Assembly (NCBI GenBank): GCA_016867315.1
Contig: VGJV01000001.1
Coordinates: 34,863 to 98,862 of the forward strand
Direction: 5' to 3'
Length of the DNA: 64,000 bases
DNA from: Candidatus Liptonbacteria bacterium
GTDB lineage: Bacteria > Patescibacteriota > Minisyncoccia > UBA6257 > 2-01-FULL-56-20
Shown: positions 15,361 to 53,433 of the stretch, piece by piece
How positions within the stretch are numbered: position 1 is the first letter of the stretch
How the letters are laid out: every line of letters begins with the position of its first letter
Notes under the pieces: model-generated
What the model saw: only the letters and a program-made list of their open reading frames with translations
Databases searched by the model: none
Told to the model about the DNA's origin: nothing
Made by a program: the position numbers and the translations under genes

Positions 15361-16593
15361 ATGCGGATCGCTTTTTTTTCTGACAACTTTTATCCGGAAC
15401 TTTCAGGAGTAAGTGATTCGATTCTCACACTCGGGAAAGAACTTGCCCGACGAGGACATGACGTGCTTTTTTCGGTCCCCGCATATTCTTCCGCCGCCTT
15501 CCGGCGAGCAAAAGTGCCTCTTGAAGAACTCGAGTTAGGAGACCATATTTCTATCGAACGCCGGTTTTCTCTCCCCTTCCCCGGGAGTCCCACCGGACAA
15601 GGCAGAATCGCGATTCCTCTTCCTCGACTTACGGCTCAGGTAAAAAGCTTTGCTCCTGAAGTAATCCACACTCAATTCTTTTTTGGCATGGGACTCGCGG
15701 CGCTTTCCGCCTCGAAACGTTTAGGAGTGCCGCTCGTGGGCACCAGCCATACTGCTACTAAAGAGTTTCTCGCGTACGCTCCGATACGAGCAGCCTGGTC
15801 CGACCGGCTCGTCATCAAATATATGAACTGGTTTTACTCCCAATGCGATATAGTTACTGCTCCTTCTGCTTCCGTACTCGAAGAAATGCACGCCGATGGC
15901 TTTGCCAAAGAAGGCCGGGCACTTTCGAATCCCATCGACACTGACTTATTTTCGCCCCAAGCAGACAAGGAGGCGCTCAAACAAAAATTCGGATTCGGAC
16001 CTCACACGCTTTTTCATGCGGGGAGATTTTCTGAAGAGCGCCACATCGATGTTCTTATAGAAGCTTTGGCGGAGGTACGACGTACCGTGCATGATGCGGA
16101 GCTCGCCATCGCCGGGCGCGGTGCCTCAGAAGCCTTTCTCAAACAAAAAGCGGCTAATCTGGGACTCAATGGAGCAGTGAGGTTTTTGGGGCTTCTTGAT
16201 AAACCCACTCTTGCCGCGGCTTACAATGCGAGCGATATATTTCTTATCGCGAGCACCTGTGAAACCCAAAGCCTGGTTCTTATGCAAGCCTTTGCCTGTG
16301 GTCTCCCCGCGATCGGGGTGCGCGCTCGCGCACTGCCCGAATACATCAATTCGCAAAATGGGTTTCTCACGGAACCCGGGGACGCGCACGGGATGGGCGC
16401 TTATGCCGCACGACTTCTGCTCGATGCGACCCTCCGTCGCAAACTTGGAAAAGGAGCGAGGAGCTTCTCAGAGCAATTCAGCACTCCTTCTATTGCTGAC
16501 CAATGGGAGGCAATTTATGCCGAGGCCATTGCGCGCTACCATGCGAACAGCCTAGCGCAAATAGCAAAGGGCAAACAGTTATTACCTTCATGA
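15361..16593 (+). CDS. glycosyltransferase family 4 (start moved to MRIAFFS, GAGGA RBS upstream)
   Basis: GT-B fold; EAxACGLPAIG-like C-terminal motif (QAFACGLPAIGVRA). Confidence 0.8.
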   Translation: MRIAFFSDNFYPELSGVSDSILTLGKELARRGHDVLFSVPAYSSAAFRRAKVPLEELELGDHISIERRFSLPFPGSPTGQGRIAIPLPRLTAQVKSFAPEVIHTQFFFGMGLAALSASKRLGVPLVGTSHTATKEFLAYAPIRAAWSDRLVIKYMNWFYSQCDIVTAPSASVLEEMHADGFAKEGRALSNPIDTDLFSPQADKEALKQKFGFGPHTLFHAGRFSEERHIDVLIEALAEVRRTVHDAELAIAGRGASEAFLKQKAANLGLNGAVRFLGLLDKPTLAAAYNASDIFLIASTCETQSLVLMQAFACGLPAIGVRARALPEYINSQNGFLTEPGDAHGMGAYAARLLLDATLRRKLGKGARSFSEQFSTPSIADQWEAIYAEAIARYHANSLAQIAKGKQLLPS

Positions 16594-16715
16594 ATCCCGT
16601 TAGAGACAACTGGACAATGCTTATGGCAATTCTAATATTTTGGAAAAGAACGCCTATTATTTTAAATAAGTCGTTTTGTTACGGTTCCGCAAGCGGAACC
16701 TGCCTCTAACGGGAT
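16594..16715. repeat. MITE-like element copy A: 15-bp terminal inverted repeats ATCCCGTTAGAGACA / TGCCTCTAACGGGAT plus internal perfect palindrome GGTTCCGC-AA-GCGGAACC
   Basis: Fills the whole GT4-GT2 spacer; same TIRs and palindrome recur in opposite orientation at 51263-51381. Confidence 0.55.
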
Positions 16716-17427
16716 GAATATAAGCTTTATTGTGCCTGCATATAATGAAGAGAAATACATCGGGCCCTGTCTCGAGAGCATCTTTGCGCATACGGGAGAA
16801 GAAGTGCAAGAAATTCTCGTGATCAATAATGCTTCGACCGATCGCACCGCAGAAGTCGCCGGCAAATTCCCAAAGGTACGCGTCGTGCATGAACCTAAGA
16901 AGGGACTTACTTTTGCGCGCGAACGCGGGCTTCGGGAAGCTCAGGGAGAGTTTCTTGCCTACATTGATGCGGACACTCGTCTCCACGCAGGATGGCTTCC
17001 TATCGTAAAGGAAGAATTTTCCAAACGGAACGATCTCGTATGCCTCAGCGGGCCTTTCTCCTATTACGATCTCACGCCTTCTCAAAAATTCGCAGCCGAG
17101 ATGGGATGGAAAATCTTTGCTCCTCTTACTTATGCGATCGTAGGATATATGGTGCTCGGAGCCAATTTTATCGTGCGAAAAGACGCCCTTCTTCAAGCCG
17201 GGACATTCAATACTTCCGTCGCCTTCTATGGGGAAGATACGGATATCGCCCGCCGATTGAGCAAAGTAGGAACCGTGCTTTTCCGCATGAACTTCTTTAT
17301 CTTGGGGTCAGGACGCCGACTGCTTGCCGAAGGCTTGTTAAAAACATATGCCACCTATGCTGCTAACTTCATTTCGGAAGTCGCGTGGCACAAGCCCGTA
17401 ACAAAGCGTTATAAAGATATCCGATGA
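16714..17427 (+). CDS. glycosyltransferase family 2
   Basis: SFIVPAYNEE, DADT (DXD) motifs. Confidence 0.8.
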   Translation: MNISFIVPAYNEEKYIGPCLESIFAHTGEEVQEILVINNASTDRTAEVAGKFPKVRVVHEPKKGLTFARERGLREAQGEFLAYIDADTRLHAGWLPIVKEEFSKRNDLVCLSGPFSYYDLTPSQKFAAEMGWKIFAPLTYAIVGYMVLGANFIVRKDALLQAGTFNTSVAFYGEDTDIARRLSKVGTVLFRMNFFILGSGRRLLAEGLLKTYATYAANFISEVAWHKPVTKRYKDIR

Positions 17428-17975
17428 CTCCTCCAAAAAAAGCAGCACTTGCTACGACCATCTTTTCTCTCGCGGGAGTGGCTTCTATTCTCGCGACCGT
17501 AACCCATTGGGGAGCTTCGTCCCCCCTCATCATTTTTTATGCCTTGCTTATGGTCCACACGTTTTTTTCCGTACGCTGCTTTTCCGCTTTCACTCCCGAA
17601 GACAACAAAGCCCAAAATTTCATCGATGTAGTACTCGCGCTCGTATATTTCGGATTGGCTTTTACTCTTTCCACGCCTTCTTATTTTACCGTCGCTACAG
17701 GCCTTCTTTTCAGTATTTCCATACTCAAGTATTCGCATCTCATGGGGCTCACGAGAAATCCCGCTGCACTTATTCTCCTTTATAGAAAGATTCGAGCCCA
17801 AGCTTTGGGCACTACACTGGTACTTTTTGTGCTGCTTGGAATCCTCGCCGGATATTCTTCCCAAGCAATACTCGCCGGAGTCATCGCGTTCTGTCTTTTG
17901 AGTATCAATTATTTATTTCTTAATCCGCTTTACCCATACCACGGTAAAATTGACGCTTCGGGCAAACATTCGTAG
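17424..17975 (+). CDS. hypothetical polytopic membrane protein
   Basis: 4-5 predicted TM helices; ATGA overlap with upstream GT2; no recognisable domain. Confidence 0.5.
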   Translation: MTPPKKAALATTIFSLAGVASILATVTHWGASSPLIIFYALLMVHTFFSVRCFSAFTPEDNKAQNFIDVVLALVYFGLAFTLSTPSYFTVATGLLFSISILKYSHLMGLTRNPAALILLYRKIRAQALGTTLVLFVLLGILAGYSSQAILAGVIAFCLLSINYLFLNPLYPYHGKIDASGKHS

Positions 17976-17984
17976 GATTTCCCT

Positions 17985-19301
17985 ATGTTCCTTCTCCTCA
18001 TAGGAGACATCGCGACGCTCTATATAAGTCTCGTGGCCACGCTTCTTATTCGTCACGGGGCGGCTTTCGGGCCGGAACTCTACGACCGGCATTTGGCACC
18101 GTTTTCCATAATTTTTGCTCTTTGGATACTGGTCTTCTATACCGCGGGACTTTATGACATCCGGCGGCTACGCAACAGCCTGGAATTTTTCAAAACGTTA
18201 TCGCTCGCCCTCGCGACGAACGCTCTTCTTACGGTTACTCTTTTCTATCTCGTGCCTTTCTTTGGGATCGCTCCCAAAACGAATCTTTTTATCTTCCTTG
18301 GCATCTTTACGGTGCTCGAAGTGACGTGGCGCCGATTTTGGAATTTGTATGCAGCGAAGGGAGAAGCGCCAAATAAAGTGGTACTTATCGGAGAAGGACA
18401 AAGTGCTCGAGAAATCGAAGAGATTATTTCTCACAATCCCCAACTCGGCTACTCTCTCGTTAAACATTTGCCTCCCACTCTTCCCACGGGGGTAACCCCG
18501 GGATTCCTCCGAGAGTCGCTCGCTGCCTCGGGGGGAAATTTGGTGGTAATAGATAGAAAACTTAAAAGCATTCCGACGCTGAATCGAGAGCTCTATGCCC
18601 TGCTCCGCACCGGCGTAGAAGTTAAAGATATTCCTTCTTTTTACGAATCGCTTTTTAAAAAAGTCCCTCTTCAAGAAATCGAGGAAGGTTGGATTCTAGA
18701 GAATATTGCCGATCAAACCCGGTTTTATGATCCTTTGAAGCGGGGTTTCGAATTTTGTGCGGCCCTGTTTCTTTTCATAGCCCTTCTGCCGCTCGAAATT
18801 CTCTTAGGACTTTTGGTGATTCTTACTTCTCGCGGGCCCGCTATTTATAAACAAGTACGCGTAGGGAAATATGGGGAGGAATTCACCCTTTATAAATTCC
18901 GCACCATGCGGCGGGATGCAGAACGACATGGGCCTCAGTGGTCGGGGCCGCAGGATGCTCGCGTAACCTTGGTTGGCAAGATTCTCCGCCACACACATCT
19001 CGATGAACTGCCTCAACTTTGGAACATACTTCGCGGCGACCTTTCTTTTGTAGGGCCCCGGCCGGAACGACCGGAATTTGTACGAGACCTCAAAGAAAAG
19101 GTTGCGTATTACGAAATCCGGCTCCTCGTGAAACCAGGAGTGACCGGGTGGGCACAAATCAATTATCGAAGCGATATCACCACGGAGGACGTAGCGGAGA
19201 AAATTAAATACGATATCTACTACGTGAAGAACCGGTCGCCTATTTTGGATATCGCGATTGTATTTCGCACATTAAAGACCTTATTTGTGACGCCGAAATG
19301 A
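17985..19301 (+). CDS. undecaprenyl-phosphate sugar phosphotransferase (WbaP/bacterial sugar transferase family)
   Basis: N-terminal TM block; C-terminal FRTMRRDAE...DELPQLWNILRGDLSFVGPRPERPEF signature. Confidence 0.85.
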   Translation: MFLLLIGDIATLYISLVATLLIRHGAAFGPELYDRHLAPFSIIFALWILVFYTAGLYDIRRLRNSLEFFKTLSLALATNALLTVTLFYLVPFFGIAPKTNLFIFLGIFTVLEVTWRRFWNLYAAKGEAPNKVVLIGEGQSAREIEEIISHNPQLGYSLVKHLPPTLPTGVTPGFLRESLAASGGNLVVIDRKLKSIPTLNRELYALLRTGVEVKDIPSFYESLFKKVPLQEIEEGWILENIADQTRFYDPLKRGFEFCAALFLFIALLPLEILLGLLVILTSRGPAIYKQVRVGKYGEEFTLYKFRTMRRDAERHGPQWSGPQDARVTLVGKILRHTHLDELPQLWNILRGDLSFVGPRPERPEFVRDLKEKVAYYEIRLLVKPGVTGWAQINYRSDITTEDVAEKIKYDIYYVKNRSPILDIAIVFRTLKTLFVTPK

Positions 19302-19332: not shown

Positions 19333-20244
19333 ATGAAAATTATTGTTACTGGGGGAGCTGGATTCATCGGCTCACATGTCGTGGACACTTATATTCGGGC
19401 GGGGCATAGGGTTTCGATCATCGACAATCTCTCTACGGGTTCACGGCGAAATATAAACCCCCGAGCGAAGTTTTATAAAGCAGATATTCGTGATCCACAG
19501 TCGATCGAGAAGATCTTGAAGAACGTGAAGCCTGACGTGGTGAATCATCATGCCGCACTTGCAAGCGTAATCGCTTCGATCAAAAATCCGAATGCCACGT
19601 TTGAGGTCAATGTGCTTGGGACCGTGAATCTTTTGCGCGCGTTCGGCACTATTAAAAATGCCGAAAAGTTTATTTTTATTTCTACGGGAGGGGCAATGTA
19701 CACCACCACGAAGCTCCCGGCTTCAGAAAAGATTCCCCCCTCCCCTCTTTCTCCTTATGGACTCTCCAAACTCCTAGGCGAGGAAACCGTGAAATTTTAT
19801 GCGCACACATTAGGATTTAATTTCTCTATCTTCCGATATGCGAATGTTTATGGCCCAAGACAGAACCCTCATGGAGAAGCGGGAGTGGTGGCTATATTTA
19901 AAGAGCAGATGAAACGGGGTGAGCGGCCTACTATTTTCGGCGATGGCACGAAAGCGCGGGATTATGTGTATGTGGAAGACTTGGCAAAAGCAAGCGTTGC
20001 GGCGCTCACGAAAGGTAATGGCGGATTATTCAATTTCGGCTTGGGAAAACTCGTAACAGACAAGCAAGTATTCGACACGGTGGCCGAAGCCGTAGGCTTC
20101 CGTAAAACTCCGCGATTCGCTCCCGTGAGGCCCGGAGAAGTGCAGAAAATTTCGCTTGATGCAGGACTCGCGCGGCGGGTGCTGGGATGGAAGCCAACCA
20201 CCTCCTTCGAAGAAGGAGTGAGGCAAGTAGCAAGTAGCAAGTAG
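19333..20244 (+). CDS. NAD-dependent epimerase/dehydratase (UDP-hexose 4-epimerase-like, SDR extended)
   Basis: TGGAGFIGSH Rossmann motif, YxxxK (YGLSK). Confidence 0.8.
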   Translation: MKIIVTGGAGFIGSHVVDTYIRAGHRVSIIDNLSTGSRRNINPRAKFYKADIRDPQSIEKILKNVKPDVVNHHAALASVIASIKNPNATFEVNVLGTVNLLRAFGTIKNAEKFIFISTGGAMYTTTKLPASEKIPPSPLSPYGLSKLLGEETVKFYAHTLGFNFSIFRYANVYGPRQNPHGEAGVVAIFKEQMKRGERPTIFGDGTKARDYVYVEDLAKASVAALTKGNGGLFNFGLGKLVTDKQVFDTVAEAVGFRKTPRFAPVRPGEVQKISLDAGLARRVLGWKPTTSFEEGVRQVASSK

Positions 20245-20258: not shown

Positions 20259-20729
20259 CTACTTATTATCCTCCCTTTTTATAGCTTCGAGGTAGTTCTT
20301 TAAAAGCCAAGAGCTGGATTGCACTTTCCCACCATCGCCGATATTAAAGACCATCTTGCAGTGAATTTCCTCGCATACGGGCACCTCGGGAATATTCGAG
20401 TGCGTGCGGTCTCCACCATTTGCAAAAATATCAGGCCGGAGTTCGCGAAGTTCCTGACACACGCTCATATCTTCCGGATTTTCAGGATGTTTCGTGAGCA
20501 TCACGGCATCTACCACACGCAGAGCTTCGATCACTTCTTTGCGCTCGGCCTCCGGCATAAATATATGCCGCTTCTTTTTTCGGAGCCAGTTGTCGTTATT
20601 CAGAATTACCACAAGTTTATCTCCCAACTTTTTTGCCTCCTCGAATAAACGCACGTGTCCTACGTGTATTGGATCAAACCCGCCGCTTACCGCCACTACG
20701 ATAGGTTTTTTGCTTTCTTTATTAGCCAT
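20259..20729 (-). CDS. cytidylyltransferase-fold nucleotidyltransferase (HldC/RfaE domain II or TagD-like)
   Basis: SGGFDPIHVGH (HxGH) motif, 156 aa. Confidence 0.7.
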   Translation of the reverse strand: MANKESKKPIVVAVSGGFDPIHVGHVRLFEEAKKLGDKLVVILNNDNWLRKKKRHIFMPEAERKEVIEALRVVDAVMLTKHPENPEDMSVCQELRELRPDIFANGGDRTHSNIPEVPVCEEIHCKMVFNIGDGGKVQSSSWLLKNYLEAIKREDNK

Positions 20730-20759: not shown

Positions 20760-22232
20760 ATGTTTGGACGGGTAAAATCCTTTCTTTTTAAGAATACTTC
20801 CACGCGACAGACCGTGGCGAAGAACACCTTCTGGCTTGGATTTTCCAATTTTGCCGGGAGGTTGATTCGCGCAGTCATTATCGTGTATGCAGCGCGCGTA
20901 TTGGGAGCCGATGGCTGGGGAATCTTTTCTTATGGCGTGACACTCGCAGCATTTCTTACTCCCTTTACGGATGTGGGGCTCAGCCAAGTGCTTATACGCG
21001 AAACAGCAAAAAATACTGACCCTGACCACCGCGCTCGCATCCTCTCCACCACGCTTTTTTTAAAATTCCTACTTCTCGCTGCCGCAATTGTCATAGTTCT
21101 TCTTATCGCCCCTCCTCTCACTACCCTCGAAGAAGCCAAACCTCTTCTTCCTTTGATTGCATTCCTCCTCGCCTTCGATACGCTTCGGGAATTCGGCTTT
21201 GCGATTATCCGCGCCATTGAGCGGATGGAATGGGAAGCAGGTCTTTTTATATTGACCAATATCGCGATCGTGGCGTGTGGATTTGTCTTCCTCGCCCTCT
21301 CTCCTACTCCGCTTTCCTTTACCTATGCCTATACCATTGGAACCGCAGTAGGGGCATTCGCTACATTTTTTGCCCTTCGTAAGCATTTTCCCCCTCGCTT
21401 TCTTTCGCGCTTCACTCCTTCACTTGTAAAACCTATTTTTGCGGCTGCGTGGCCACTTTCGATTGCCGCGCTCCTTGGACTTCTCATGCTGAATACCGAT
21501 ATCCTTATCATCGGCTGGCTCGGCTCGGCCACAGATGTGGGTTACTACTCTGCGGGATATAGGATCGTGCAGCTTCTCTACCTCCTCCCCGCGATTCTCG
21601 CGATCAGCCTTTTCCCTACTCTTTCACGACTGGCGAACAAAGATCAGGCGCTTATGCGCACCACTATAGAAAAAGCGCTCACGGTCGTATTTCTGGCCTC
21701 GCTCCCGCTTGCCGTAGGAGGAATTCTCCTCGGCCCTCAGCTCATTTCGCTTCTCTTCGGAGAAAGTTTTTTGCCTGCCACGGACTCTTTCCGCATTCTC
21801 CTTGCCACGCTCCTTATCGATTTTCCTGTCGTGATTCTTTCGAATGCCCTCTTTGCGTTTAATCTCCCTCGGAAGCTTACGGTGTACGCGGCGCTCGGAG
21901 GATTTTTGAATGTCCTGTTGGATTTCCTGCTCATTCCGCCTTTCGGCATTGTAGGATCCGCATGGGCCACCCTCTTCGCACAATTCGTGAGCACTGCGTA
22001 TCTCTGGGGAGCCCTCAGAACCAAAACGCCTTTCCGAGTATTCCCTCATTTGAAAATTGCGCTGACTGCCACTGTCTGCATGGCAATCGGGACGGTTTTT
22101 CTTAACGCCATTGGGGTGCATGTTCTCGGTACCATTGCCATCAGCGCCCTTATCTATGGCCTCGTGTTGTATTTCCTTAAAGAACCGACGCTTAAAGAAG
22201 TGCGGCAGGCAGTACTTCACTCTACTACCTAG
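20760..22232 (+). CDS. polysaccharide flippase (Wzx/MOP superfamily)
   Basis: 490 aa, about 12-14 TM helices, polysaccharide-biosynthesis-protein N-terminal pattern. Confidence 0.7.
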   Translation: MFGRVKSFLFKNTSTRQTVAKNTFWLGFSNFAGRLIRAVIIVYAARVLGADGWGIFSYGVTLAAFLTPFTDVGLSQVLIRETAKNTDPDHRARILSTTLFLKFLLLAAAIVIVLLIAPPLTTLEEAKPLLPLIAFLLAFDTLREFGFAIIRAIERMEWEAGLFILTNIAIVACGFVFLALSPTPLSFTYAYTIGTAVGAFATFFALRKHFPPRFLSRFTPSLVKPIFAAAWPLSIAALLGLLMLNTDILIIGWLGSATDVGYYSAGYRIVQLLYLLPAILAISLFPTLSRLANKDQALMRTTIEKALTVVFLASLPLAVGGILLGPQLISLLFGESFLPATDSFRILLATLLIDFPVVILSNALFAFNLPRKLTVYAALGGFLNVLLDFLLIPPFGIVGSAWATLFAQFVSTAYLWGALRTKTPFRVFPHLKIALTATVCMAIGTVFLNAIGVHVLGTIAISALIYGLVLYFLKEPTLKEVRQAVLHSTT

Positions 22233-23046
22233 AAAACAAGGCTTTTTTGAGCCGCGAGAGCGGCGTGTTTAAAAATTTTTTGAGAGTGGTGGGAAGATGC
22301 GCATATATTGAGTAGAGGATCGCGAACGCGGTGCCTTTGAGATAGCCGGGATACTTTTCTTTATAGCGATACACGATCCGAAACGCGGCACGGGCGGATT
22401 CTTTCTGCTTCGCAAAGGAAGCACCCTTCTCCCACATGGTGTACGCCGTGAAATACTCCGGGAAGTTATAGAGCTTCCCCCGGAGGCCTAGCTTCAGCCA
22501 AAAATCCCAGTCCGCAAATTGGCGCAAGGAGGTATCGTAATTTCCTACCTGTGTCGCAACGCTCCGGCGAAACACGGTCGTCGAGTTTGCCATCGGGTTG
22601 GCATAAAGCGCCCTGCTTCGAATCGCCTCATCTGCTTCCGGCTTCAGGGTTTTAAATAATTCTTTTCCTTCCGGATTCATCGCCACAATTCCTCCGCCGC
22701 AGCCCACGTAGTCGCGATGCGCATCGAGGAACGCAAGCTGTTTCCCTAGTTTTTTTGAATCTATCCACCAGTCGTCATCGTCCAAGATTGCGACATATTC
22801 CCCCGTCGCTTTTGCCAAACCGAAATTCGAAGCGTTCGCAATCGAACCTTTGGTTTCACGATGGAAATATTTGATGCGCGAGTCGGTCGAGAATCTTTTT
22901 ACCGCTTCGGCCGTCTCGTTGCCCGCGCTGTCGTCCACAATAATAAGTTCCCAGTCCGTTACCGTCTGCGCGAGGAGTGACTCGATGGATTTCGTGAAAA
23001 TATCCCCTCTCTCGCACGTCACGAGGAGGCCTGAAACTTTTGGCAT
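22225..23046 (-). CDS. glycosyltransferase family 2
   Basis: IIVDDSAGNET, ILDDDD (DXD) motifs. Confidence 0.75.
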   Translation of the reverse strand: MPKVSGLLVTCERGDIFTKSIESLLAQTVTDWELIIVDDSAGNETAEAVKRFSTDSRIKYFHRETKGSIANASNFGLAKATGEYVAILDDDDWWIDSKKLGKQLAFLDAHRDYVGCGGGIVAMNPEGKELFKTLKPEADEAIRSRALYANPMANSTTVFRRSVATQVGNYDTSLRQFADWDFWLKLGLRGKLYNFPEYFTAYTMWEKGASFAKQKESARAAFRIVYRYKEKYPGYLKGTAFAILYSIYAHLPTTLKKFLNTPLSRLKKALFSR

Positions 23047-24230: not shown

Positions 24231-24260
24231 GAACCGACTTACCCTCGGTTCTTTTCTTTT
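24231..24260. terminator. bidirectional intrinsic terminator between convergent IMPase-like and hddC-like genes
   Basis: GAACCGA-cttaccc-TCGGTTC followed by TTTTCTTTTT. Confidence 0.5.
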
Positions 24261-25003: not shown

Positions 25004-25124
25004 GCAATAAGCGTACAGCATTTTGACTTTATAAGGAAATATTGTAAAACATGCCCAGCTCAATGAAACCACGATGCATATTGGAATTGTTGGGCATTAA
25101 CCTACTAACCCAAGGAAATTAGCT

Positions 25125-39270: not shown

Positions 39271-39319
39271 AATGTTCTTTGAAAATCTAACGTATTCCGT
39301 GCTATTCTTCAACCGTTCT

Positions 39320-42522: not shown

Positions 42523-42560
42523 AGGAATTTGTACGCGTAATAATAACAATAAAGTCTCTA

Positions 42561-45478: not shown

Positions 45479-46639
45479 TTAGTGACTCCCCAGTTCCTTT
45501 ACCGCTTTTTGAATTCTCCGACAGCCTTCACGAAGCTTCACGGCAGCATTTATGGCGTAACAAAGACGCACGTAGTTTTTCCCTGCTTCTCCAAATCCCG
45601 AGCCGGGGCAGACCACCACTCCCGTCGTTCGCAGAAGATGCGCGCTAAACTCATCGCCCGTCATTCCCGTGCGGGATACGTCGATCATGAGATAAAACGC
45701 CCCCTGAGGCTTTGCGAAGTCGAGCTCCGGAATCTTTTTAAGTTCCTCACAGACAATCTCCCGAAGTTTCGTGTATTCCTCCAGATAGACTTTGCTAAAT
45801 TTTTTTCTGCCCTCAAGGGCCGTTACACACGCATCCTGAAGGAACGGCGGCACACACGAAACGATTGTCTGGGAGAGAAGTCCTATTTTTTGAATCACCG
45901 CCTCGGGACCTACCCCATATCCCACTCGCCAGCCAGTCATTGCGAAAGGCTTCGAAAAACCGCTCGTCACAATCACCCGCTCGCGACATTTATCCAAGGT
46001 GCCCACAGAAAAATGCTTTCCCTCGTATACGAAAGGCGCATAAATTTCATCGCTAATAAGAAAACAGTTATGGCGCTTCGCTATGTTGTAAATCGCCACT
46101 AGGTCTTCTTTGGAATATACCGCACCCGTGGGATTCGACGGAGAATTTACTACAATCACCCGTGTTTTTTTAGTAAGCTTTTTTTCTATTTCCCCAGGGG
46201 AGAACCGGAAATTATTTTTATGCGTTACGGGCACGTAGACTCCCCTCAAATTCAGTGTGGCGATTGCTGCGCGATAGGTTACAAACGCCGGATCGGTAAG
46301 AATCACTTCTTCCCCGGGATTCGCGAGCACTGCAAGCAGATAATAGATCAGTGGGTTCGCCCCGGTGGTTACCACCACTTGCCCCAGCGCCGGCTCGAAT
46401 CCATAGTCCTCTCTAAAAACCTTTAGAACGGTCGTGCGTAAGTTATGCTCTCCGAAAGAATCGCCATAATGCGTCCGCCCCTTTTTCAGCGAAGCCACTG
46501 CGGCAGCTTTTACTTCCGAAGGCATTTCGAGGTGCGTATCTCCAATTTCAAAATGAATAATATCTTTTCCTTCCCGCTCGAGCGCTTTCGCTTCCCCCAA
46601 GAGCTTAAACATGGACTGACCCACGATGCGCTCCGCCAT
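45479..46639 (-). CDS. PLP-dependent aminotransferase, class I/II (AspAT fold); start at MAERIV
   Basis: SGFSKPFAMTGWRVGY PLP-lysine motif, NPTG motif. Confidence 0.8.
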   Translation of the reverse strand: MAERIVGQSMFKLLGEAKALEREGKDIIHFEIGDTHLEMPSEVKAAAVASLKKGRTHYGDSFGEHNLRTTVLKVFREDYGFEPALGQVVVTTGANPLIYYLLAVLANPGEEVILTDPAFVTYRAAIATLNLRGVYVPVTHKNNFRFSPGEIEKKLTKKTRVIVVNSPSNPTGAVYSKEDLVAIYNIAKRHNCFLISDEIYAPFVYEGKHFSVGTLDKCRERVIVTSGFSKPFAMTGWRVGYGVGPEAVIQKIGLLSQTIVSCVPPFLQDACVTALEGRKKFSKVYLEEYTKLREIVCEELKKIPELDFAKPQGAFYLMIDVSRTGMTGDEFSAHLLRTTGVVVCPGSGFGEAGKNYVRLCYAINAAVKLREGCRRIQKAVKELGSH

Positions 46640-46658: not shown

Positions 46659-47852
46659 TTATTTCGTCGCATGGAGCAAAGATACGGATATTTCCGTGAA
46701 GAACTCCGCGACGAGCTCCTGGAGTTTTTGCAATCGATCTTCTCCCACGAACTGATTGTTTCCAATATAGAATCCGTGCTCATGCACAAACTCCGCATTC
46801 GGAAACTGCGAAGGATGCGCAAATTTTTTCAGGAACGGCTGCCGCATAAGATTTCCGCTAATCACGGGACGCGATTCGATCCCCGCTTTCCGAATCTTCG
46901 CCTGAAACGCTTCCTTATGCTCTTTTTTATGAAAGAGAAAAGGAAGTGAAAACGAAGAGGTGCCTTCGCGGAACGTGGAGAAATGCAAAAACTCTTTGTA
47001 GGGGGCGAGAATTTCAAGAAACTTCCGGTGATTCTCATTGCGGATTCGGATGTAGCGATCCAGGTGCTTCAATTGCTCGATTCCCAACACCGCATGCAGT
47101 TCCGTGTTTCGAACGTTATATCCTTCCGTCAAAAACAGGAACTGAAAATCGATATCCGGATGTTTTTCTTTATGCGCAGAGTGATACGACTCCGGCAATT
47201 CCCGGGCTAATCCATGCGACCGCTTCAAAACACAAAGTCTGTAGATATCCTCATCGTCCGTGCAAATCATTCCTCCCTCGACAGTTGTCATGTGATGCCC
47301 CCAATAGAAGCTGAAAGAGCCGCAAGAAGAAAGGCTCCCTACCTTTACTCCATCCACCGTGGCTCCATGTGCCTCGCAACAATCCTCCATGAGTTTTATG
47401 TCACGCGCTTCCGCAAGTTTACGGAGACGCTTCATATCTGCGGGGACTCCCAAAAGGTGGGTTATAAATATTGCCCGAGTCTTAGGGGTAATCACCCGTT
47501 CTATTTTTTCATAGTCGAAGGAGAGGTCGGTCAAATTCACGTCCACAAAAACGGGCGTAAGGCCGCATTGAAGCACGGGGGTGATATTCGTGATCCAGGT
47601 TACCGCGGGCACAATGATTTCATCTTTATCGTCCCATCCGTATTTTTCTTTCATCGCGCTCATCATAAGAAGATTCGCGGAGCTGCCGGAGTTCACGAAC
47701 ACGCTATATTTCGAGCCCTGCCAGGCAGACCATGCGCGCTCGAATTCCCGCACTTTTTCAAACTGCGTAAAGCGGGCGGTGGAACGAATAAAGTTCACGA
47801 GTACCTCGATATCTCCTCCTTCTAAAATATTTTCTTGTAGTTTCCAAAACAT
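46659..47852 (-). CDS. DegT/DnrJ/EryC1-family PMP-dependent nucleotide-sugar 3-dehydratase (ColD/E1 type; active-site Lys replaced by His)
   Basis: GSFSFYWGHHMTTVEGG aligns to the aminotransferase SFH..K..GEGG motif with K->H as in ColD/E1; 397 aa. Confidence 0.7.
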   Translation of the reverse strand: MFWKLQENILEGGDIEVLVNFIRSTARFTQFEKVREFERAWSAWQGSKYSVFVNSGSSANLLMMSAMKEKYGWDDKDEIIVPAVTWITNITPVLQCGLTPVFVDVNLTDLSFDYEKIERVITPKTRAIFITHLLGVPADMKRLRKLAEARDIKLMEDCCEAHGATVDGVKVGSLSSCGSFSFYWGHHMTTVEGGMICTDDEDIYRLCVLKRSHGLARELPESYHSAHKEKHPDIDFQFLFLTEGYNVRNTELHAVLGIEQLKHLDRYIRIRNENHRKFLEILAPYKEFLHFSTFREGTSSFSLPFLFHKKEHKEAFQAKIRKAGIESRPVISGNLMRQPFLKKFAHPSQFPNAEFVHEHGFYIGNNQFVGEDRLQKLQELVAEFFTEISVSLLHATK

Positions 47853-47864: not shown

Positions 47865-48824
47865 CTATTTAATTCTTTCTCCCGTCACCCCATCGTAGTG
47901 CGCGGCGTACCACTCATACGCATCCTTCACTCCTTCTTCGAGTTCGATTGCGTGCTTCCATCCTAAGCTGCGCATGCGAGACATATCCATTAACTTTCGC
48001 CCCACCCCATCCGGCTTCGTAGTATCCCAGGTGAGGCGTCCTTCATAACCACTTACCTTACCAATAAGTTCGGCGAGGGCCTTAATGGAAATTTCGACGC
48101 CCGTGCCCAGATTAAAAAGATCTTCCTGCGTATCTGTGTTCATAAGAAACAGGCAGCCGGCGGCGATATCATCTACATGAATAAATTCCCGGTATGGACT
48201 TCCTGTTCCCCACAGCACTACCTCTTTTTTCCCTTGCGTCTTCGCTTCGAAAAATTTTCTAATAAATGCCGGGAGTACATGAGAGTTTTTGAGATCGTAA
48301 TGGTCATTAGGGCCGTAGGCGTTTGACGGCATCACCGAAATGAAATTGGTGCCATATTGCTTGTTGTATGACTGACAGGTCAACACTCCTGCGAGCTTCG
48401 CCACCGCGTAGGGCTTGTTCGTCGGCTCAAGCACCCCTGTTAAGAGATACTCTTCTTTCATGGGCTGCGGGCAATCTTTAGGGTAGGTGCAGGAGCTGCT
48501 CAAAAAAAGCAGTTTTTTCACTGTATGCTCGTAAGATGCATGAATGATATTGTTTTGGATCGCCAGATTCTCATAAATGAAGTCTGCGGGGAAAGTACTG
48601 TTTGCATAAATCCCCCCTACTTTTGCCGCTGCATCAAATACATATTCCGGTTTTTCTTTTTTAAAAAATTCCCCGACTGCTACGGTATTCGTGAGATCCA
48701 GTTCCTCATGGGAGCGCGCCACAATATTCGTATATCCTTCTTTTTGAAGCAGGCGCATGATCGCGGAGCCCACCAAGCCACGGTGTCCCGCCACATAAAT
48801 TTTTGCGCCTTTTCCCATTGCCAT
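47865..48824 (-). CDS. fcl: GDP-L-fucose synthase family (GDP-4-keto-6-deoxymannose 3,5-epimerase/4-reductase; Fcl or ColC-type)
   Basis: [28 protein letters not shown] motifs. Confidence 0.85.
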
Positions 48825-48854: not shown

Positions 48855-49331
48855 TTAAAAGCCTGCGGCGCGAAGGGCTTCTTGAATATATTTGAGGAAA
48901 TTTTTCTCAATTTTAGAAGCCCAGCGGAAATCAGAGCTCTGCGCATCGAGCGCCACGGCGGACTCCTTTTTGACTTCCACTAAACACGTGACTATCGGAG
49001 TATGAGTATTGGTTCCGCGGAAATATCCTCTTGGGGATATAAATTCATAAAAGCCGAGAGGTTCTATAAACTTCCCCGCGAGATTGGTTTCTTCCCTAAG
49101 CTTCCGCACCGCAGTTTGGGCAACTGTTTCATTTTTTAATACTCTCCCGCCGGGAAACCACCAGCTTCCCCGTAGTGGTGGTAGTTTGCGCCTCACCAAC
49201 AGAAATTCCCTTTTCCAATTAACCGCCACTACATCGACGCAAAATATCGGGAGTGTTTTATAAATCTTTCGGTAGAGGGCCGCAGGAATTTTCTCGGAAA
49301 CTATTTTCATAGTGCTTGTATTGTACTCCAA
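48855..49331 (-). CDS. NUDIX hydrolase (GDP-mannose mannosyl hydrolase-like)
   Basis: Nudix box GGRVLKNETVAQTAVRKLREETN; position between fcl and gmd as in gmd-fcl-gmm clusters. Confidence 0.65.
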   Translation of the reverse strand: MEYNTSTMKIVSEKIPAALYRKIYKTLPIFCVDVVAVNWKREFLLVRRKLPPLRGSWWFPGGRVLKNETVAQTAVRKLREETNLAGKFIEPLGFYEFISPRGYFRGTNTHTPIVTCLVEVKKESAVALDAQSSDFRWASKIEKNFLKYIQEALRAAGF

Positions 49332-49429
49332 AACGCAAAGAAGGCATTCCGGACTCTTGGATTTCCAAGAATCGAAATGCCTTCTTATTATTTTTATTTT
49401 CTTTCGTTCCTTTCGGTTGATTGTTGGCG

Positions 49430-50172
49430 TTATTTCATGAGTCCCAACTGGCGGGCGTACTTAAATGTCCCTTGCGTGAGTTCGTCGAGCTGACGCACCC
49501 TTTTAAGGATCATTTCCGGAGTACCTTCGGCTTGGGTCTGAGCCATAGGATGCCCATACGGTACGGGAACATCCATGACTCTGAGTCCCGCCGCGATACA
49601 AGCAATGACCGGGAAGTGAGTGGGATCCCAGGTATCGGGAGCTCCCAGCGCTTCCGGATTGTAGTCCAGGAAATACGGCAGCGCTCTTGGTCCAATCACC
49701 CGCGGGCCGAAGAACATGTCGAGCCACACTCCCGTAGCAAGTCGATAGGCTTCGTTTCCTGCTTGTTCTGTTAAGGTTTGGACTTCGGGTAGGTGACGAA
49801 TCCCTGCGGCATGCGCGAGGGAACGACAAGGTCTGCCTCGCCCGCGAGCACAGGAGCCGCTGCGGTTTCCACGCAGGTTACAAAGCCCACTTTCTCGGGC
49901 TCAAAAAAGACCACCGGATCGTTTTTTGCAAGCTCTCCAGCAACCTTCATTGCCTGCCGTCGACCTGGTCCCAGTTTTCCGGGCGGGTGAGAAATCTCTT
50001 CCACCACCTGCACATGCTGTAGCTTTTCGAATTTCTCCCGATACCACCCCGGAGAACCTCCATCAACCACTACCATTCGATATCCCAATACACTTGCCCG
50101 TTGCACCATCTCATACGCGAGTTGGGAGCGAATATTATTTTTAGGATCGGGGTAGAAAGTGGTGGTAGCCAA
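49430..50172 (-). pseudogene. frameshifted, GC-rich glycosyltransferase-like gene remnant (two ORFs 49771-50172 and 49430-49729 in different frames)
   Basis: The downstream ORF frame stays open far upstream of its GTG and overlaps the upstream ORF tail; VVVDGGSPG motif; local GC clearly above neighbours. Confidence 0.35.
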
Positions 50173-50265: not shown

Positions 50266-51264
50266 TTAGAGAGTAGCTCCTACCGCTTTACAGTCTGCTT
50301 CCACCATAATGCGTACGAGTTCCGGAAACTTTGTTGTTGCTTCCCACTTAAGTTTTTCTTTGGCCTTCTTCGTATCTGCAATAAGATCATCTACTTCCGT
50401 GGGACGGAGATAGCGAGGATCAAACTCCACGTACTTTTTCCAGTCTCCTAAGCCTGCTACCTTAAACGCTTCGGCTACAAATTCTTCTACGGAGTGAGAC
50501 TCCCCTGTCCCGATTACATAGTCTTCGGGCTTTTCCTGCTGGAGCATTTGCCACATCGCTTCGCAATATTCTGGCGCATATCCCCAATCTCGTTTCGCCT
50601 CGAGATTTCCCAAATAAAGTTTTTTCTCGAGGCCGGCTTTGATGCGCGCTACGCCGCGAGAAATTTTCCTCGTCACAAACGTTTCGCCTCGGCGGGGCGA
50701 TTCATGATTGAAGAGAATTCCATTCACTGCAAAAAGCCCATACGCCTCCCGATAATTCCGAGTCATGTGATAGGCGAACACCTTCGCGGCCGCATAAGGA
50801 CTCCGAGGATAAAAAGGGGTATTTTCGCTTTGAGGAGGAGGGGTGGCTCCAAACATTTCCGAGCTCGATGCCTGATAAAACCTCACTTTCTTTTTGGTCT
50901 CTTTCTCGTAATCCTTGATGGCTTCGAGTATCCGAAGCGCACCGAGGCCCACAATCTCCGCGGTATACTCCGGAATATCGAAGGATACGCGCACGTGCGA
51001 TTGTGCGCCCAAGTTATAAAATTCATCGGGAGCTACTTCATACAAGAGCTTCCGAACCGTGTTCGCATCCGACAAGTCTCCATAATGCAAAATAAAATTT
51101 TTATGCTCCACGTGCGGATCTTGATAAATATGATCTATCCGCGAGGTATTGAAGGTCGAAGCGCGCCGAATTACCCCGTGTACTTCATACCCTTTCTTTA
51201 ATAAAATTTCGGCCAAGTAACTTCCATCCTGACCCGTGACACCGGTAAGCAATGCTTTTTTCAT
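50266..51264 (-). CDS. gmd: GDP-mannose 4,6-dehydratase
   Basis: [19 protein letters not shown]-terminus, [22 protein letters not shown] motifs. Confidence 0.9.
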
Positions 51265-51381
51265 CCCGTTAGAGACAGGTTCCGCCCGCGGAACCGTAGT
51301 AATAAGGGTTTACTGTAAAAAAACATATTTTTACAAAACATTGTAATGACATGAAATTTGATCTGGTGTCTCTCACGGGAT
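51263..51381. repeat. MITE-like element copy B (inverted relative to copy A): ATCCCGTTAGAGACA + GGTTCCGC-CC-GCGGAACC ... TGTCTCTCACGGGAT
   Basis: Same 15-bp TIR (one mismatch in right TIR) and same 8-bp-arm palindrome as 16594-16715; abuts the gmd start codon. Confidence 0.55.
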
Positions 51382-51392
51382 TCATTACCTCT

Positions 51393-52043
51393 CTACTTCT
51401 TTTTTGTACTCGTCGCAGTCGAGGAAGTTATTACTCCTGCCTCAATGGCTTTTAAGAGCTCTGCTACTCGATTGTCGCTGGGCCATTGCGCATAAATTTG
51501 ATCGGCAAGAAGTTTGGATCGCTCCGCATCTCGCCTGATGAGGTACACGTCTAAAAGCCCATAGAGAAATTGCGGGCGGCGCGGACCCAATTCCAAACCT
51601 TTTAAGAAATACTTCTCTGCTGCGTCCAAGTGTCCCGCTTTCTTCGTATGATTAAAGAGAATCCGCCGCAGCGTGCTTAATATGTACAAATCCTGTTCGA
51701 AGCTCATTCCTTTCTCACGAGCTACGATGGGATTAAAATATTCTTCGACGAAATATACGAGCTCTTCTTCTATTTCTGCGGAGCTGCTTCCCTGACTGAT
51801 GAAACTCGCCACCTCAGAAGCCATATTCCGCACTAATTCTTCCTGTCCGATCGGAGAAGGAATATCAAGCGGCACACGGAATAAATCTTTAAATTCTTCC
51901 AAAGATCGTGCTCCGTTCATTCCCCGCACTGTTCGGATGAACGAGTGAGACTTTTCATAAGGCAAGTAGCTCCCGTAATACGCTATAAACGCAAGAAAAA
52001 GAACAGCGATTATCGATATTACTTTTTTGATAGTACTGCTCAT
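51393..52043 (-). CDS. hypothetical membrane-anchored protein (start placed at MSSTIKK)
   Basis: N-terminal TM helix, no recognisable domain; lies between gmd and Wzy_C-like gene. Confidence 0.45.
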   Translation of the reverse strand: MSSTIKKVISIIAVLFLAFIAYYGSYLPYEKSHSFIRTVRGMNGARSLEEFKDLFRVPLDIPSPIGQEELVRNMASEVASFISQGSSSAEIEEELVYFVEEYFNPIVAREKGMSFEQDLYILSTLRRILFNHTKKAGHLDAAEKYFLKGLELGPRRPQFLYGLLDVYLIRRDAERSKLLADQIYAQWPSDNRVAELLKAIEAGVITSSTATSTKKK

Positions 52044-52044
52044 A

Positions 52045-53433
52045 TTAGTGGGCGTGGGTATGGTTTTCTTCTTTTTTATGATGCATCCACCAAGCCGCAA
52101 AAGCTAAGAACAAGAAAAGGTTTATATAGATGGGCAACACATCAAAGAGCACTAAGCCCTGCACGAGATACCCGACGGGCAATGCAAAAAGGAGTCCCTG
52201 CATTATTGTGGATTCATCCCCATGTCTCACTCGACGGAAAAAGCCTACGAAAAACGTCACAAATATACCTAAGAACGTGAGAACTCCCAAGAGGCCCGTC
52301 TCTGCGAGATAATCGAAGAACAGGCTGTGCGCCCGATCAAACCATGTTTCTGTGGCTTTCCCCGGAGCGAAATGCCGAGGATCGAAATGTTTATCGAATA
52401 CCGCGGGGAAGTTTTCTGGCCCCCAACCAAGAAGAGGTCGTTCTTTGAATCCTTCCCAGGCAGATCCCCAAGTCCATACCCGAGTGGCAAAGCTTTCTAC
52501 GGAACTCACATCATAAAGCCTTCCGGCAAAAGGAATTCTCTTTACCGCATCGGAGTCGTGAAAAAAGAACATCCCCGCATTAAAGAGGAGGATAATGAGC
52601 AACACGATGAGGGAAAAGCGTTTTAACTTTCTCTCTCCTCTTAACGCAGCGTAAAGGAAGAATGTTATGACGGCAGCTCCGAGCCCCAAGAAAGCTCCTC
52701 TGGTTTGCGTAAGTATAAGAAAGACGAAAAAGAAAACTCCTAAGCCGATCCACCATCGGCGCTTTTGGCTTTTTATTGCTAGATAGAAGCAATAAAACAT
52801 GGTGAACATGAGATAGGGCGCCACGTATGCAGGATTACCCAGAGAGCCCTGGAACCTTACTACCGGCGAGAATAGACGACCCAAAAAGGAATCCGCCACA
52901 GGCTGACCCCCAGGACCCGCGTAGGCACTTACCAATCCAAACGGGTTCGTATAGACGCCGTTCGACTGTACTAGTACCGCAGAGCCAATCCCATAAAAAA
53001 CCACAACGAGGGCGGCAGCGATTGCAATTTTGAACACCCGCTCCCAATCTTCCCGCTTCGAAGCAAATAAAGTGAGGAGCATGAATAACCCGTAGTAGTG
53101 GAGCATCTGAAACCCTCCCTCCCCTCTTTCATAGTTAGACCAGAAAGCCCCATGCGGATTGTCTGCAAAAATGGAGGCGAGCAAAAAAGCCGCTACAAAG
53201 AAAGAAACTGCCACTACCAGAGGTCTATTCCAGGCCTCCTTAAATCTCCTCTTTGCTTCTCCGACTGGGGCTTCAAACGCCCACCAGAGGAATGCAAAGG
53301 CTATTCCTAATTCAATAGCGACACGAAACCAGTATGTTTTACCTCCAATAAAAGGGAAAAGCGCCCCCATCAGTACCACAATCACGCAGAAGAGTGAGGC
53401 GTAGGTAAAAAATTTAGAGAGCTTAAGAAGCAT
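52045..53433 (-). CDS. O-antigen ligase / O-antigen polymerase family (Wzy_C domain) membrane protein
   Basis: About 10-12 TM; TQTRGAFLGL and periplasmic-loop RxxxW...AHSLFFDYLAETG pattern typical of WaaL/Wzy_C. Confidence 0.6.
   Translation of the reverse strand: MLLKLSKFFTYASLFCVIVVLMGALFPFIGGKTYWFRVAIELGIAFAFLWWAFEAPVGEAKRRFKEAWNRPLVVAVSFFVAAFLLASIFADNPHGAFWSNYERGEGGFQMLHYYGLFMLLTLFASKREDWERVFKIAIAAALVVVFYGIGSAVLVQSNGVYTNPFGLVSAYAGPGGQPVADSFLGRLFSPVVRFQGSLGNPAYVAPYLMFTMFYCFYLAIKSQKRRWWIGLGVFFFVFLILTQTRGAFLGLGAAVITFFLYAALRGERKLKRFSLIVLLIILLFNAGMFFFHDSDAVKRIPFAGRLYDVSSVESFATRVWTWGSAWEGFKERPLLGWGPENFPAVFDKHFDPRHFAPGKATETWFDRAHSLFFDYLAETGLLGVLTFLGIFVTFFVGFFRRVRHGDESTIMQGLLFALPVGYLVQGLVLFDVLPIYINLFLFLAFAAWWMHHKKEENHTHAH

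Follow-up and report, generated by a model that had tools for sequence, protein, structure and literature searches.

Positions 15361-53433 of the DNA analysed here, a stretch of 64,000 nucleotides from contig VGJV01000001.1 of a Candidatus Liptonbacteria bacterium (assembly GCA_016867315.1; hereafter the window), hold a long row of glycan genes. We interpret this row as a functional, Wzx-dependent cell-surface glycan locus that occupies a lineage-conserved, hypervariable chromosomal site, and put the probability of this reading at roughly 0.75. It is built on observed gene families, synteny, pseudogenes and insertion anatomy, from which we infer the likely substrates, nucleotide carrier, order of steps and acceptor of the glycan. 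The row lies between housekeeping genes, namely GroEL, thymidylate synthase and DHFR upstream and RNase Y and iPGM downstream.

After all open reading frames (ORFs) had been listed, the candidate genes at 14.7-60 kb were scanned against Pfam and NCBIfam. Forty consecutive genes fill positions 15361-53433, essentially all of them in glycan-related families. They include about 20 sugar-nucleotide enzymes and nine intact glycosyltransferases (GTs; one GT4, six GT2, one GT10 and one CgeB-like). The domain scans thus bear out the first-pass annotation, which had described a contiguous surface-glycan locus of about 40 genes with an initiating transferase, a flippase and Wzy_C machinery; the single GT4, the GT10-like and CgeB-like transferases, the FkbM methyltransferase, the WbaP-like enzyme, Wzx and the Wzy_C-like protein that it named were each matched by a profile. 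Its estimate of at least five short-chain dehydrogenases/reductases (SDRs) holds, as seven extended and one classical SDR genes were counted. Its estimate of at least eight GT2 genes was too high, since six intact PF00535 genes and one decayed GT2-like gene were found. A YerE-like enzyme dependent on thiamine diphosphate (ThDP) and a second dead gene (25125-26138), both discussed below, had not been listed. Scores above the curated cutoffs were obtained for the TIGR03025 phosphoglycosyltransferase, Gmd, the transaldolase, the nucleotide-sugar dehydrogenase and the FkbM domain. Thirty-eight of the 40 genes are intact, full-length ORFs and two are disrupted. GC content, overall and at third codon positions (GC3), is homogeneous across the locus except in the GT2-like pseudogene (window GC 49%), and no recent gene duplication was detected within the locus, where the best paralogue pair is 33% identical.

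The position of the locus was compared among relatives by taking 80 related loci with 10-kb flanks via RNase Y as an anchor and mapping the window proteins onto them by tblastn. In the GTDB species set, the RNase Y proteins closest to that of the window, at no more than 85% identity, belong to metagenome-assembled genomes (MAGs) of Liptonbacteria, Paceibacteria and Patescibacteria. Within a Liptonbacteria-like clade the gene order g60610-SBP5-iPGM-RNaseY-Wzy_C-unk51 is conserved in 51 of the 68 loci with enough downstream sequence. Identity to the window in these 51 loci is 38-67% for Wzy_C and 24-66% for unk51; the order is absent from the more distant Harrison-, Colwell- and Wolfebacteria. 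Gmd is the next gene after unk51 in 33 of 64 loci, and the content beyond Gmd differs even in the closest species (L011 and L013). In one relative (L033) the glycan block is absent, and unk51 is joined directly to homologues of the left flank of the window (g14018 and g13203). The locus thus occupies a fixed, hypervariable chromosomal site, like O-antigen and capsule loci, and turnover of gene content between species by gain, loss and decay of modules is strongly supported. The pair of Wzy_C and unk51 was also seen to lie directly downstream of RNase Y (L010-L062) independently of which glycan genes follow.

The left border of the locus is formed by a VTT/DedA-like membrane protein (14745..15359, plus strand; PF09335, 41.3 bits), followed by the GT4 glycosyltransferase (15361..16593, plus; PF00534, 104.8 bits; PF13439, 94.1 bits); gene calls in contigs from the same population show these two as neighbours as well. 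On the plus strand these genes are succeeded by GT2a (16714..17427; PF00535, 102.4 bits), a hydrophobic protein with no Pfam or NCBIfam match (17424..17975) and an initiating polyprenyl-phosphate glycosylphosphotransferase of WbaP/WcaJ type (17985..19301; PF02397 (Bac_transf), 213 bits; TIGR03025, 352.7 bits, cutoff 295.55). The Wzx-type flippase (20760..22232, plus; PF01943 (Polysacc_synt), 121.9 bits, cutoff 28.2; PF13440, 85 bits) neighbours GT2b on the minus strand (22225..23046; PF00535, 88.4 bits). Also on the minus strand are GT2c (33366..34325) and GT2d (34360..35328), both with PF00535, a CgeB-like Glyco_trans_1_2 protein (35364..36413) and a GT10 enzyme (36410..37492), both recognised in the domain scan, GT2e (37489..38493; PF00535) and the FkbM methyltransferase (38497..39477), whereas GT2f (39272..40189; PF00535) is encoded on the plus strand. 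The right end is made up of unk51, a conserved protein of 216 residues (51393..52043, minus) that has no Pfam or NCBIfam match and always follows Wzy_C in relatives, and the Wzy_C/O-antigen-ligase-family membrane protein itself (52045..53433, minus; PF04932, 73.1 bits), which adjoins RNase Y. The GT2a product from its first ATG is absent from the protein collection, though the neighbouring genes are present. In the retrieved contigs the gene after GT4 is called from the same ATG as GT2a, but runs off every contig end, and this may be the reason why the full-length product is missing from the collection.

In the assembly route that we propose, the WbaP-like transferase would start a lipid-linked oligosaccharide, which the nine glycosyltransferases and the FkbM methyltransferase would extend and decorate. 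Wzx would then flip the oligosaccharide across the membrane, where the conserved Wzy_C protein may either polymerise it or ligate it to an acceptor.

Several sugars for this glycan could be made within the locus. Gmd, the GDP-mannose 4,6-dehydratase (50266..51264, minus), scores 518.7 bits to TIGR01472, above the cutoff of 415. The same strand encodes a NUDIX hydrolase that weakly resembles GDP-mannose mannosyl hydrolase (48855..49331; PF00293, 60.8 bits; NF011963, 43.9 bits, cutoff 146) and an epimerase/reductase like GDP-L-fucose synthase (Fcl) or ColC (47865..48824; NF047922, 462 bits against a cutoff of 500), a score by which Fcl and ColC specificity are not separable. It is joined by a DegT-family gene (46659..47852, minus) whose best match in the PDB is ColD (2GMS, 242 bits), ahead of the CDP-type E1 (3BCX, 145 bits). 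The HH of its SFYWGHH motif aligns with SFYSHH of ColD, where aminotransferases have their catalytic lysine. The gene does not code for an aminotransferase and is predicted to encode a sugar 3-dehydratase of the ColD type, dependent on pyridoxamine 5'-phosphate; ColD itself is a GDP-4-keto-6-deoxymannose 3-dehydratase. Together, Gmd, the Fcl-like enzyme and the ColD-type dehydratase would make GDP-L-fucose and/or GDP-colitose.

A ThDP-dependent carboligase and an additional reductase are interposed in this set, which suggests that a 4-keto-3,6-dideoxy intermediate may be diverted to another product. The carboligase (43591..45432, minus; 613 residues) has three thiamine pyrophosphate domains and falls below the equivalog cutoff for acetolactate synthase (387.8 against 538 bits). 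Among solved structures it is closest to 8RPH (323.6 bits), followed by 5AHK, which we take to be PpYerE (283 bits), and plant acetohydroxyacid synthase (about 247 bits). The entry 8RPH is JanthE (PMC12188165), which, like PpYerE, is a YerE-like enzyme of solved structure (PMC12247030). Such enzymes put an acyl branch on CDP-4-keto-3,6-dideoxyglucose, and the reductase YerF acts next, in the pathways to yersiniose and erwiniose (PMC12247030, PMC9306805). A matching YerF-like SDR reductase (42561..43625, minus; PF01370, 144 bits; 354 residues as called in L004, one of the retrieved contigs) overlaps the 3' end of the carboligase gene. More than 120 clusters are at least 62% identical to the ThDP enzyme, and two unrelated sequences, a metagenome contig of 60 kb (L007) and a genome of 6.5 Mb (L008), hold the same module of ThDP enzyme, SDR, ColD-like and Gmd-like genes.

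All YerE-type precedents would lead one to look for a CDP-sugar route, but no protein reached the cutoff of TIGR02623 or TIGR02622 (best 53 and 39.6 bits), no E3-like gene was found, and the neighbours are of GDP type; we therefore set this route aside. Because CDP-glucose genes are lacking and the neighbours are Gmd- and ColD-like, the predicted product of the YerE-like and YerF-like enzymes is a C4-branched 3,6-dideoxyhexose on a GDP scaffold. A class I aminotransferase resembling aspartate aminotransferase (45479..46639, minus; PF00155, 219.9 bits; NF041091, 310 bits, cutoff 550) lies between the ColD-like and YerE-like genes and is absent from the modules of L007 and L008. A role as a C-C-forming enzyme like 8-amino-7-oxononanoate synthase was considered for it and rejected, as NCBIfam places it with the aspartate aminotransferases. 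More speculatively, it might supply a 2-oxo-acid donor other than pyruvate to the branching enzyme.

A second group of enzymes resembles the pathway to GDP-glycero-manno-heptose. A transaldolase (30691..31419, minus; TIGR02134, 325.6 bits, cutoff 281.95) is a possible source of sedoheptulose-7-phosphate. Four further genes on the minus strand have the expected families GmhA, HddA, GmhB and HddC as their best matches. These are a divergent GmhA-like SIS isomerase (26872..27480; PF13580, 32.1 bits; TIGR00441, 49.8 bits, cutoff 209), an HddA-like GHMP kinase, which would act on heptose-7-phosphate (31428..32414; best NCBIfam match NF049969, 163.9 bits, cutoff 600), a GmhB-like HAD-IIIA phosphatase (26232..26783; NF006506, 129 bits, cutoff 178; above cutoff for TIGR01662) and a sugar-1-phosphate nucleotidyltransferase like mannose-1-phosphate guanylyltransferase or HddC (24260..25072; PF00483, 93.3 bits; NF052502, 113 bits, and NF049965, 87.7 bits with a cutoff of 300, both below cutoff). 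As all four heptose-specific enzymes score below cutoff, a heptose product of the clustered set is plausible and no more is claimed for it. The heptose, 6-deoxy- and 3,6-dideoxyhexose and methylation chemistry named in the first-pass annotation is thus embedded in the locus in the form of genes and its labels are plausible, with the reservation that most heptose enzymes lie below the curated cutoffs. A nucleotide-sugar 6-dehydrogenase resembling UDP-glucose dehydrogenase (29385..30725, minus; TIGR03026, 297 bits, cutoff 189.8) would add a uronic acid.

The remaining sugar genes are a GalE-like extended SDR epimerase/dehydratase (19333..20244, plus; PF01370, 208 bits; TIGR01179, 183.6 bits, below cutoff), a cytidylyl- or adenylyltransferase-like protein similar to RfaE domain II (20259..20729, minus; PF01467, 56.3 bits; TIGR02199, 76 bits, cutoff 181.5) and a phosphatase of the inositol-monophosphatase family (23136..24167, plus; PF00459, 78.8 bits). 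They further include, all on the minus strand, the classical SDR (27576..28406; PF00106, 182 bits), a Gfo/Idh/MocA oxidoreductase (28387..29388; PF22725 and PF01408; best NCBIfam match IolG-like, 159.5 bits, cutoff 355), an extended SDR epimerase/dehydratase (32421..33347; PF01370, 159.5 bits), and an RmlD-like reductase (40238..41113), an RmlC/FdtA-like cupin (41120..41572) and an extended SDR (41572..42582), the last three below equivalog cutoffs. Several intergenic spacers consisting of stop-rich heptamer repeats (AGAAAAT, GCAAGTA, AATTTCT, TTAGAAA) were observed at 4497-4521, 9152-9190, 11003-11027, 19305-19329, 20223-20253 and 26789-26872.

Two genes of the locus are dead. The first-pass annotation had pointed to a decayed GC-rich gene, and the segment at 49421..50172 (minus) indeed holds a GT2-like pseudogene with a GC content of 54-56% and a frameshift that fits a 1-nt deletion near 49790. 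When repaired, the protein has 247 residues and aligns end to end, across the junction, with intact homologues of 243-261 residues at up to 44% identity; some distant homologues carry PF00535. Because intact homologues fill the same Gmd-adjacent slot in two relatives (L056 and L041), the pseudogene is an ancestral member of the locus that decayed and not necessarily a recent import.

The other dead gene (25125..26138, plus) lies between the HddC-like and GmhB-like genes and is interrupted by an in-frame TGA (25632-25634) just before a histidine triad (HIT), HAHFHVY. Its only close homologue among 5.8 billion proteins (P0121; 56% identical) is a single protein of 336 residues, with phenylalanine at the position of the TGA and the same context of nucleotidyltransferase and HAD genes. 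Recoding of the TGA was considered and rejected, given this unbroken homologue and the use of TGA as the terminator of 8 of 46 tallied ORFs. An exhaustive HMMER search returned 106 remote relatives of about 280 residues without a Pfam model, and the family profile matches HIT proteins in the PDB (E 1.4e-9). An alignment-based AlphaFold model of the family (pLDDT 85.6; a single-sequence model of P0121 reached pLDDT 32 and was not used) has a two-lobed, GalT-like fold by Foldseek, with ADP-glucose phosphorylase (1Z84/2H39) and GalT (1GUP) as matches (E about 1e-9, TM 0.5-0.6). On this model, the pseudogene would be a dead copy from an uncharacterised family of nucleotidyltransferases or phosphorylases in the GalT branch of the HIT superfamily.

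The most unusual feature of the region is a pair of MITEs (for miniature inverted-repeat transposable element), el1 and el2. Both had been noticed in the first-pass annotation as MITE-like elements and are confirmed here, together with their target duplications. Element el1 (16590..16719, plus) has a core of 118 nt (16596-16713) that runs from CCCGTTAGAGACA to TGCCTCTAACGGG and is flanked by direct repeats ATGAAT at 16590-16595 and 16714-16719, the right copy being the start of GT2a. The stop codon TGA of the GT4 gene overlaps the left ATGAAT, so that, as read from the sequence, removal of el1 restores an ATGA stop/start overlap. Element el2 (51260..51385, minus) has a core of 115 nt (51379-51265) between the repeats ATGAAT (51385-51380) and ATGAA (51264-51260), of which the right one is the start of Gmd. 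Both contain a leader ORF, of 39 codons in el1, where it ends with TAA at 16707-16709, and of 38 codons in el2. The two elements are 81% identical over 154 aligned columns including short flanks (fold z about -5). Both have terminal inverted repeats of 13 nt, CCCGTTAGAGACA / TGYCTCTAACGGG, around an AT-rich interior, with a GC hairpin directly at one end. At the orthologous unk51-Gmd junction the element is absent in all 13 relatives examined, several of which share the ATGAAAAAAGC start, and every contig from the window's own population carries it. Both elements are true insertions with target duplications.

No Rfam family was matched in the whole window at the gathering threshold, nor at el1 at E<=1; a blastn comparison of el1 with plasmids gave only a chance match of 31 nt, and the window contains no GIY-YIG ORF. 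A degenerate third relative of about 71 nt, ATTCCCTTAGAGATA ... TATTTCTAACGGGAC, with its own GC hairpin, lies at about 103-178, between two minus-strand genes, and abuts no start codon.

A metagenome scan for both repeats with a gap of 80-110 nt placed the two elements in a family found on at least 119 contigs (L090-L208). Many of those among the matches listed are seemingly from groundwater studies, judged solely by contig names such as 'Hain-H51'. The following figures likewise hold among the matches listed. All but two of the elements are 114-124 nt long, the exceptions measuring 132 and 136 nt. An ATG directly follows the hairpin-side end in 92 of 103 hairpin-oriented copies, and of 86 such ATGs, 77 begin an ORF of 90 codons or more. 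The 5-nt repeats on the two sides (ATGAA, ATGGA, ATGAG) are identical in 65 copies, or 64 of 102 unique ones, and covary between left and right; for identical pairs other than ATGAA, 16 were observed against 1.5 expected by permutation (maximum 7). The hairpin recurs in 102 of 103 copies; its stem takes 54 distinct forms, among which compensatory changes are abundant. The family thus combines 13-nt terminal inverted repeats, target duplication and small size, and lacks a transposase. In the literature searched we found no description of MITEs in the Candidate Phyla Radiation (CPR) or of MITEs at start codons.

The duplicated upstream ATG opens the leader frame (MNPVRD...). Among the matches listed, 54 unique copies have a suitable length, and in 34 of them this frame is open throughout the element, against 6.3 +/- 2.4 with shuffled interiors. 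An open leader terminates either with a TAA that precedes the real ATG by 7 nt or with a TGA that overlaps this ATG. The remaining frames are rarely open, with 1 and 0 of 68 copies for the two other sense frames and 0-7 of 68 for the three on the reverse strand. Early stops interrupt the leader in each of the 14 copies in which, by length, it would otherwise be fused in frame to the gene. A retained Shine-Dalgarno site upstream of the duplicated ATG was considered as well and discarded; a Shine-Dalgarno-like 4-mer was present in only 1 of 67 copies. The genes downstream of the copies, again among the matches listed, include by Pfam ssb, rpoC, secY, ftsZ, eno, rplD, rplW, frr, def and ruvC. Because copies in other CPR genomes precede rpoC, secY, ftsZ and further housekeeping genes, insertion of the family is neither glycan-specific nor lethal.

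Four longer elements of 273-281 nt (L030 16682-16963, L119 25-297, L201 533-807 and L204 4890-5170) have ends that are the same as, or near-identical to, those of the MITEs. Their only product is a GIY-YIG nuclease of 86-96 residues (PF01541, 52-68 bits), and GIY-YIG is not among the recognised transposases. The ORF of L201 begins at the duplicated ATG, and those of L030, L201 and L204 end in ...LSLTG*, their TGA overlapping the host ATG. Each of the four has a long-range stem of 12-15 bp whose arms, about 150 nt apart, match both arms of the MITE hairpin; in L119 they begin with the same 11 nt as the stem in two MITE copies. We give even odds to the view that these elements and the MITEs form one CPR mobile-element family that inserts exactly at start codons and duplicates ATGRR. 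The full-length form would be a mini-gene of about 275 nt between the inverted repeats CCCGTTAGAGACA / TGTCTCTAACGGG, and the MITEs, of 115-121 nt, would be deletion derivatives that have lost the 150-nt interior of the long stem and kept the leader frame. Translation of the leader, followed by termination and reinitiation, would keep the host gene expressed, and this would explain why copies are tolerated before rpoC, secY, ftsZ and ribosomal-protein genes. In our preferred reading, the MITEs of the window are neutral insertions of a genome-wide, start-codon-targeting element and not glycan switches.

This bears on the suggestion, made in the first-pass annotation, that repeats and decay in the locus hint at ongoing phase or antigenic variation. 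On that view the site would be a contingency locus, with its MITEs and decayed genes as marks of repeat-mediated switching or recombination, and the MITEs at the start codons of GT2a and Gmd, the two inactivated genes and the high variability of the site between species could all be read in this way. Two short-read contigs of sample SRR16108673 also end inside MITEs (L005 at window position 51355 in el2, L211 at 16663 in el1), as expected if the element is multi-copy in the genome or community. The population data argue against switching. Exact-protein look-ups led to contigs from seven samples (JGI 3300020214 and 3300020198; Logan SRR16108667, SRR16108668, SRR16108673, SRR7990526 and SRR7985589) that match the window at 8.4-17.4 kb and 42.0-52.3 kb, parts which include both MITEs and the frameshifted GT2-like pseudogene. 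They align with the window without gaps at 99.96-100% identity, and whichever MITE, el1 or el2, a contig spans is present in it. An exact search of 241 million metagenome records gave no match to an empty el2 site, and in none of the contigs is the segment between el1 and el2, which lie 34.5 kb apart in inverted orientation, turned round. The locus contains no homopolymer above 8 nt, no in-frame simple repeat in its GT genes and, in the Pfam and NCBIfam scans of its ORFs, no match to a recombinase or invertase family. The sole exact repeat with a unit of 2-7 nt and at least four copies is the heptamer GCAAGTA (4.4 copies; Tandem Repeats Finder also gives short, mostly imperfect arrays), which spans the 3' end of the SDR gene 19333-20244 and the adjoining intergenic space. 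Besides the MITE arms, one inverted-repeat pair has both arms in the locus, a 76% match between two SDR genes. Elsewhere the MITE family also occupies start codons of essential housekeeping genes, so it is not targeted to glycan genes. Within-population switching is therefore unsupported, and we regard a contingency locus as highly improbable. What stands of the earlier suggestion is remodelling over evolutionary time, between species, and what finds no support is the idea that the MITEs or the decayed gene drive ongoing variation. In the model that we favour, the content of the site would turn over between species without switching inside a population.

The two pseudogenes, one of deviant GC, and the relative that lacks the block altogether (L033) could alternatively point to a largely horizontally acquired relic that is being lost from a shrinking genome and no longer makes a defined glycan. 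This is very unlikely in view of the 38 intact, full-length genes with strong domain scores and uniform GC3, of pathway sets that are complete, including Gmd, ColD, YerE and YerF, and of alleles that are unchanged across seven samples. A different acceptor deserves more attention, although we consider it doubtful: the glycan may be destined for O-glycosylation of an S-layer protein or pilin, with Wzy_C as an O-oligosaccharyltransferase of PglL/PilO type that would transfer it en bloc to a conserved surface protein. Such a role would explain why Wzy_C and unk51 are conserved beside RNase Y in the 51 relatives while the downstream glycan genes differ, and the place of Wzy_C inside the anchor is no less compatible with a ligase or O-oligosaccharyltransferase than with a polymerase of repeat units. 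CPR bacteria, moreover, lack an outer membrane and lipopolysaccharide (LPS). The weak NCBIfam matches of Wzy_C include 'putative O-glycosylation ligase' and RfaL, but all are far below cutoff (the best, to the IctB family, with 52 against 366 bits), and polymerases, ligases and O-oligosaccharyltransferases alike fall under the Wzy_C Pfam domain.

Some of these observations also weigh against our preferred reading of a single Wzx-dependent surface-glycan locus. The Wzy_C protein is not assignable from its profile matches as a polymerase, a ligase or an O-oligosaccharyltransferase, and its conservation across differing gene sets argues against a serotype-specific polymerase. No ORF at 14745-53433 matched a Pfam or NCBIfam family of chain-length regulators (Wzz, polysaccharide co-polymerase) or export components, which a cell that lacks an outer membrane may be able to do without. 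The GDP carrier of the branched sugar is deduced only from the Gmd- and ColD-like neighbours and the missing CDP-pathway genes, and the specificities of the four GDP-heptose enzymes and the Fcl-, RmlC- and RmlD-like proteins, all below NCBIfam equivalog cutoffs, are guesses. Finally, the block may consist of two or more independent systems that are merely adjacent.

CPR bacteria, or Patescibacteria, are ultrasmall and mostly episymbiotic, and their surface is presumably the interface with their hosts. With a typical CPR genome of about 1 Mb, the 38-kb island probably takes up several percent of the genome. A fixed site with differing content suggests a diversification of surface glycans comparable to O-antigen and capsule serotypes, and the RNase Y-Wzy_C-unk51 order provides a defined anchor from which glycan diversity can be surveyed in MAGs. 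If the GDP route to a C-branched 3,6-dideoxyhexose is true, it extends YerE-type chemistry beyond CDP-sugars. If confirmed, the start-codon-inserting GIY-YIG/MITE family would represent a new way for a selfish element to live in the essential operons of streamlined genomes, as well as a source of mis-annotated gene starts in CPR MAGs.

Among known mobile elements, the MITEs are most readily compared with the Correia elements of Neisseria and the palindromic elements of Rickettsia. They are like these in being about 120 nt long, in having terminal inverted repeats and short target duplications, in being present in many copies across genomes and in lying in transcribed regions. They differ in inserting exactly at start codons with duplication of ATGRR, in carrying a leader ORF through the whole element and in having relatives that encode only a GIY-YIG protein of about 90 residues.

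The locus itself resembles the Wzx/Wzy clusters for O-antigen, capsule and exopolysaccharide, such as the enterobacterial galF-gnd region, in its initiating transferase, Wzx, Wzy_C-family protein, many glycosyltransferases and in-cluster sugar pathways. Like the enterobacterial O-antigen loci it has conserved flanks around a content that is highly variable between lineages. In contrast to them, it resides in a monoderm-like CPR host without LPS, neither Wzz nor Wza was found in the locus scans, and the Wzy_C gene lies in the conserved flank instead of the variable part. The GDP-colitose pathway of E. coli O55 and Yersinia pseudotuberculosis (ManB/ManC, Gmd, ColD, ColC) is matched by Gmd, a ColD-like enzyme with histidine for lysine and an adjacent Fcl/ColC-like gene, whereas the window differs in an Fcl-like protein slightly below the cutoff for GDP-fucose synthase and in the interposed ThDP carboligase and reductase. 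As in the pathways to yersiniose A and erwiniose (YerE/YerF, ErwE/ErwF), a three-domain ThDP enzyme and an SDR stand beside a 3-dehydratase and a 4,6-dehydratase. To our knowledge, all characterised YerE-type cases use CDP-4-keto-3,6-dideoxy-D-glucose, provided by enzymes of RfbF/G/H/I type, while the neighbours in the window are of GDP-mannose type (Gmd and ColD-like) and the module includes an aminotransferase resembling aspartate aminotransferase. The heptose set recalls the GDP-D-glycero-alpha-D-manno-heptose pathway of the Aneurinibacillus S-layer glycan and the Campylobacter jejuni capsule, with four enzyme types clustered together with a transaldolase; it deviates in the scores of the four enzymes, which lie below cutoffs, and in the extra, dead GalT-fold HIT gene, which has its counterpart in the P0121 contig. 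Taken together, the locus belongs to a known kind, a variable glycan island of Wzx/Wzy_C type, with one predicted variant chemistry, a GDP-based C-branched dideoxyhexose.

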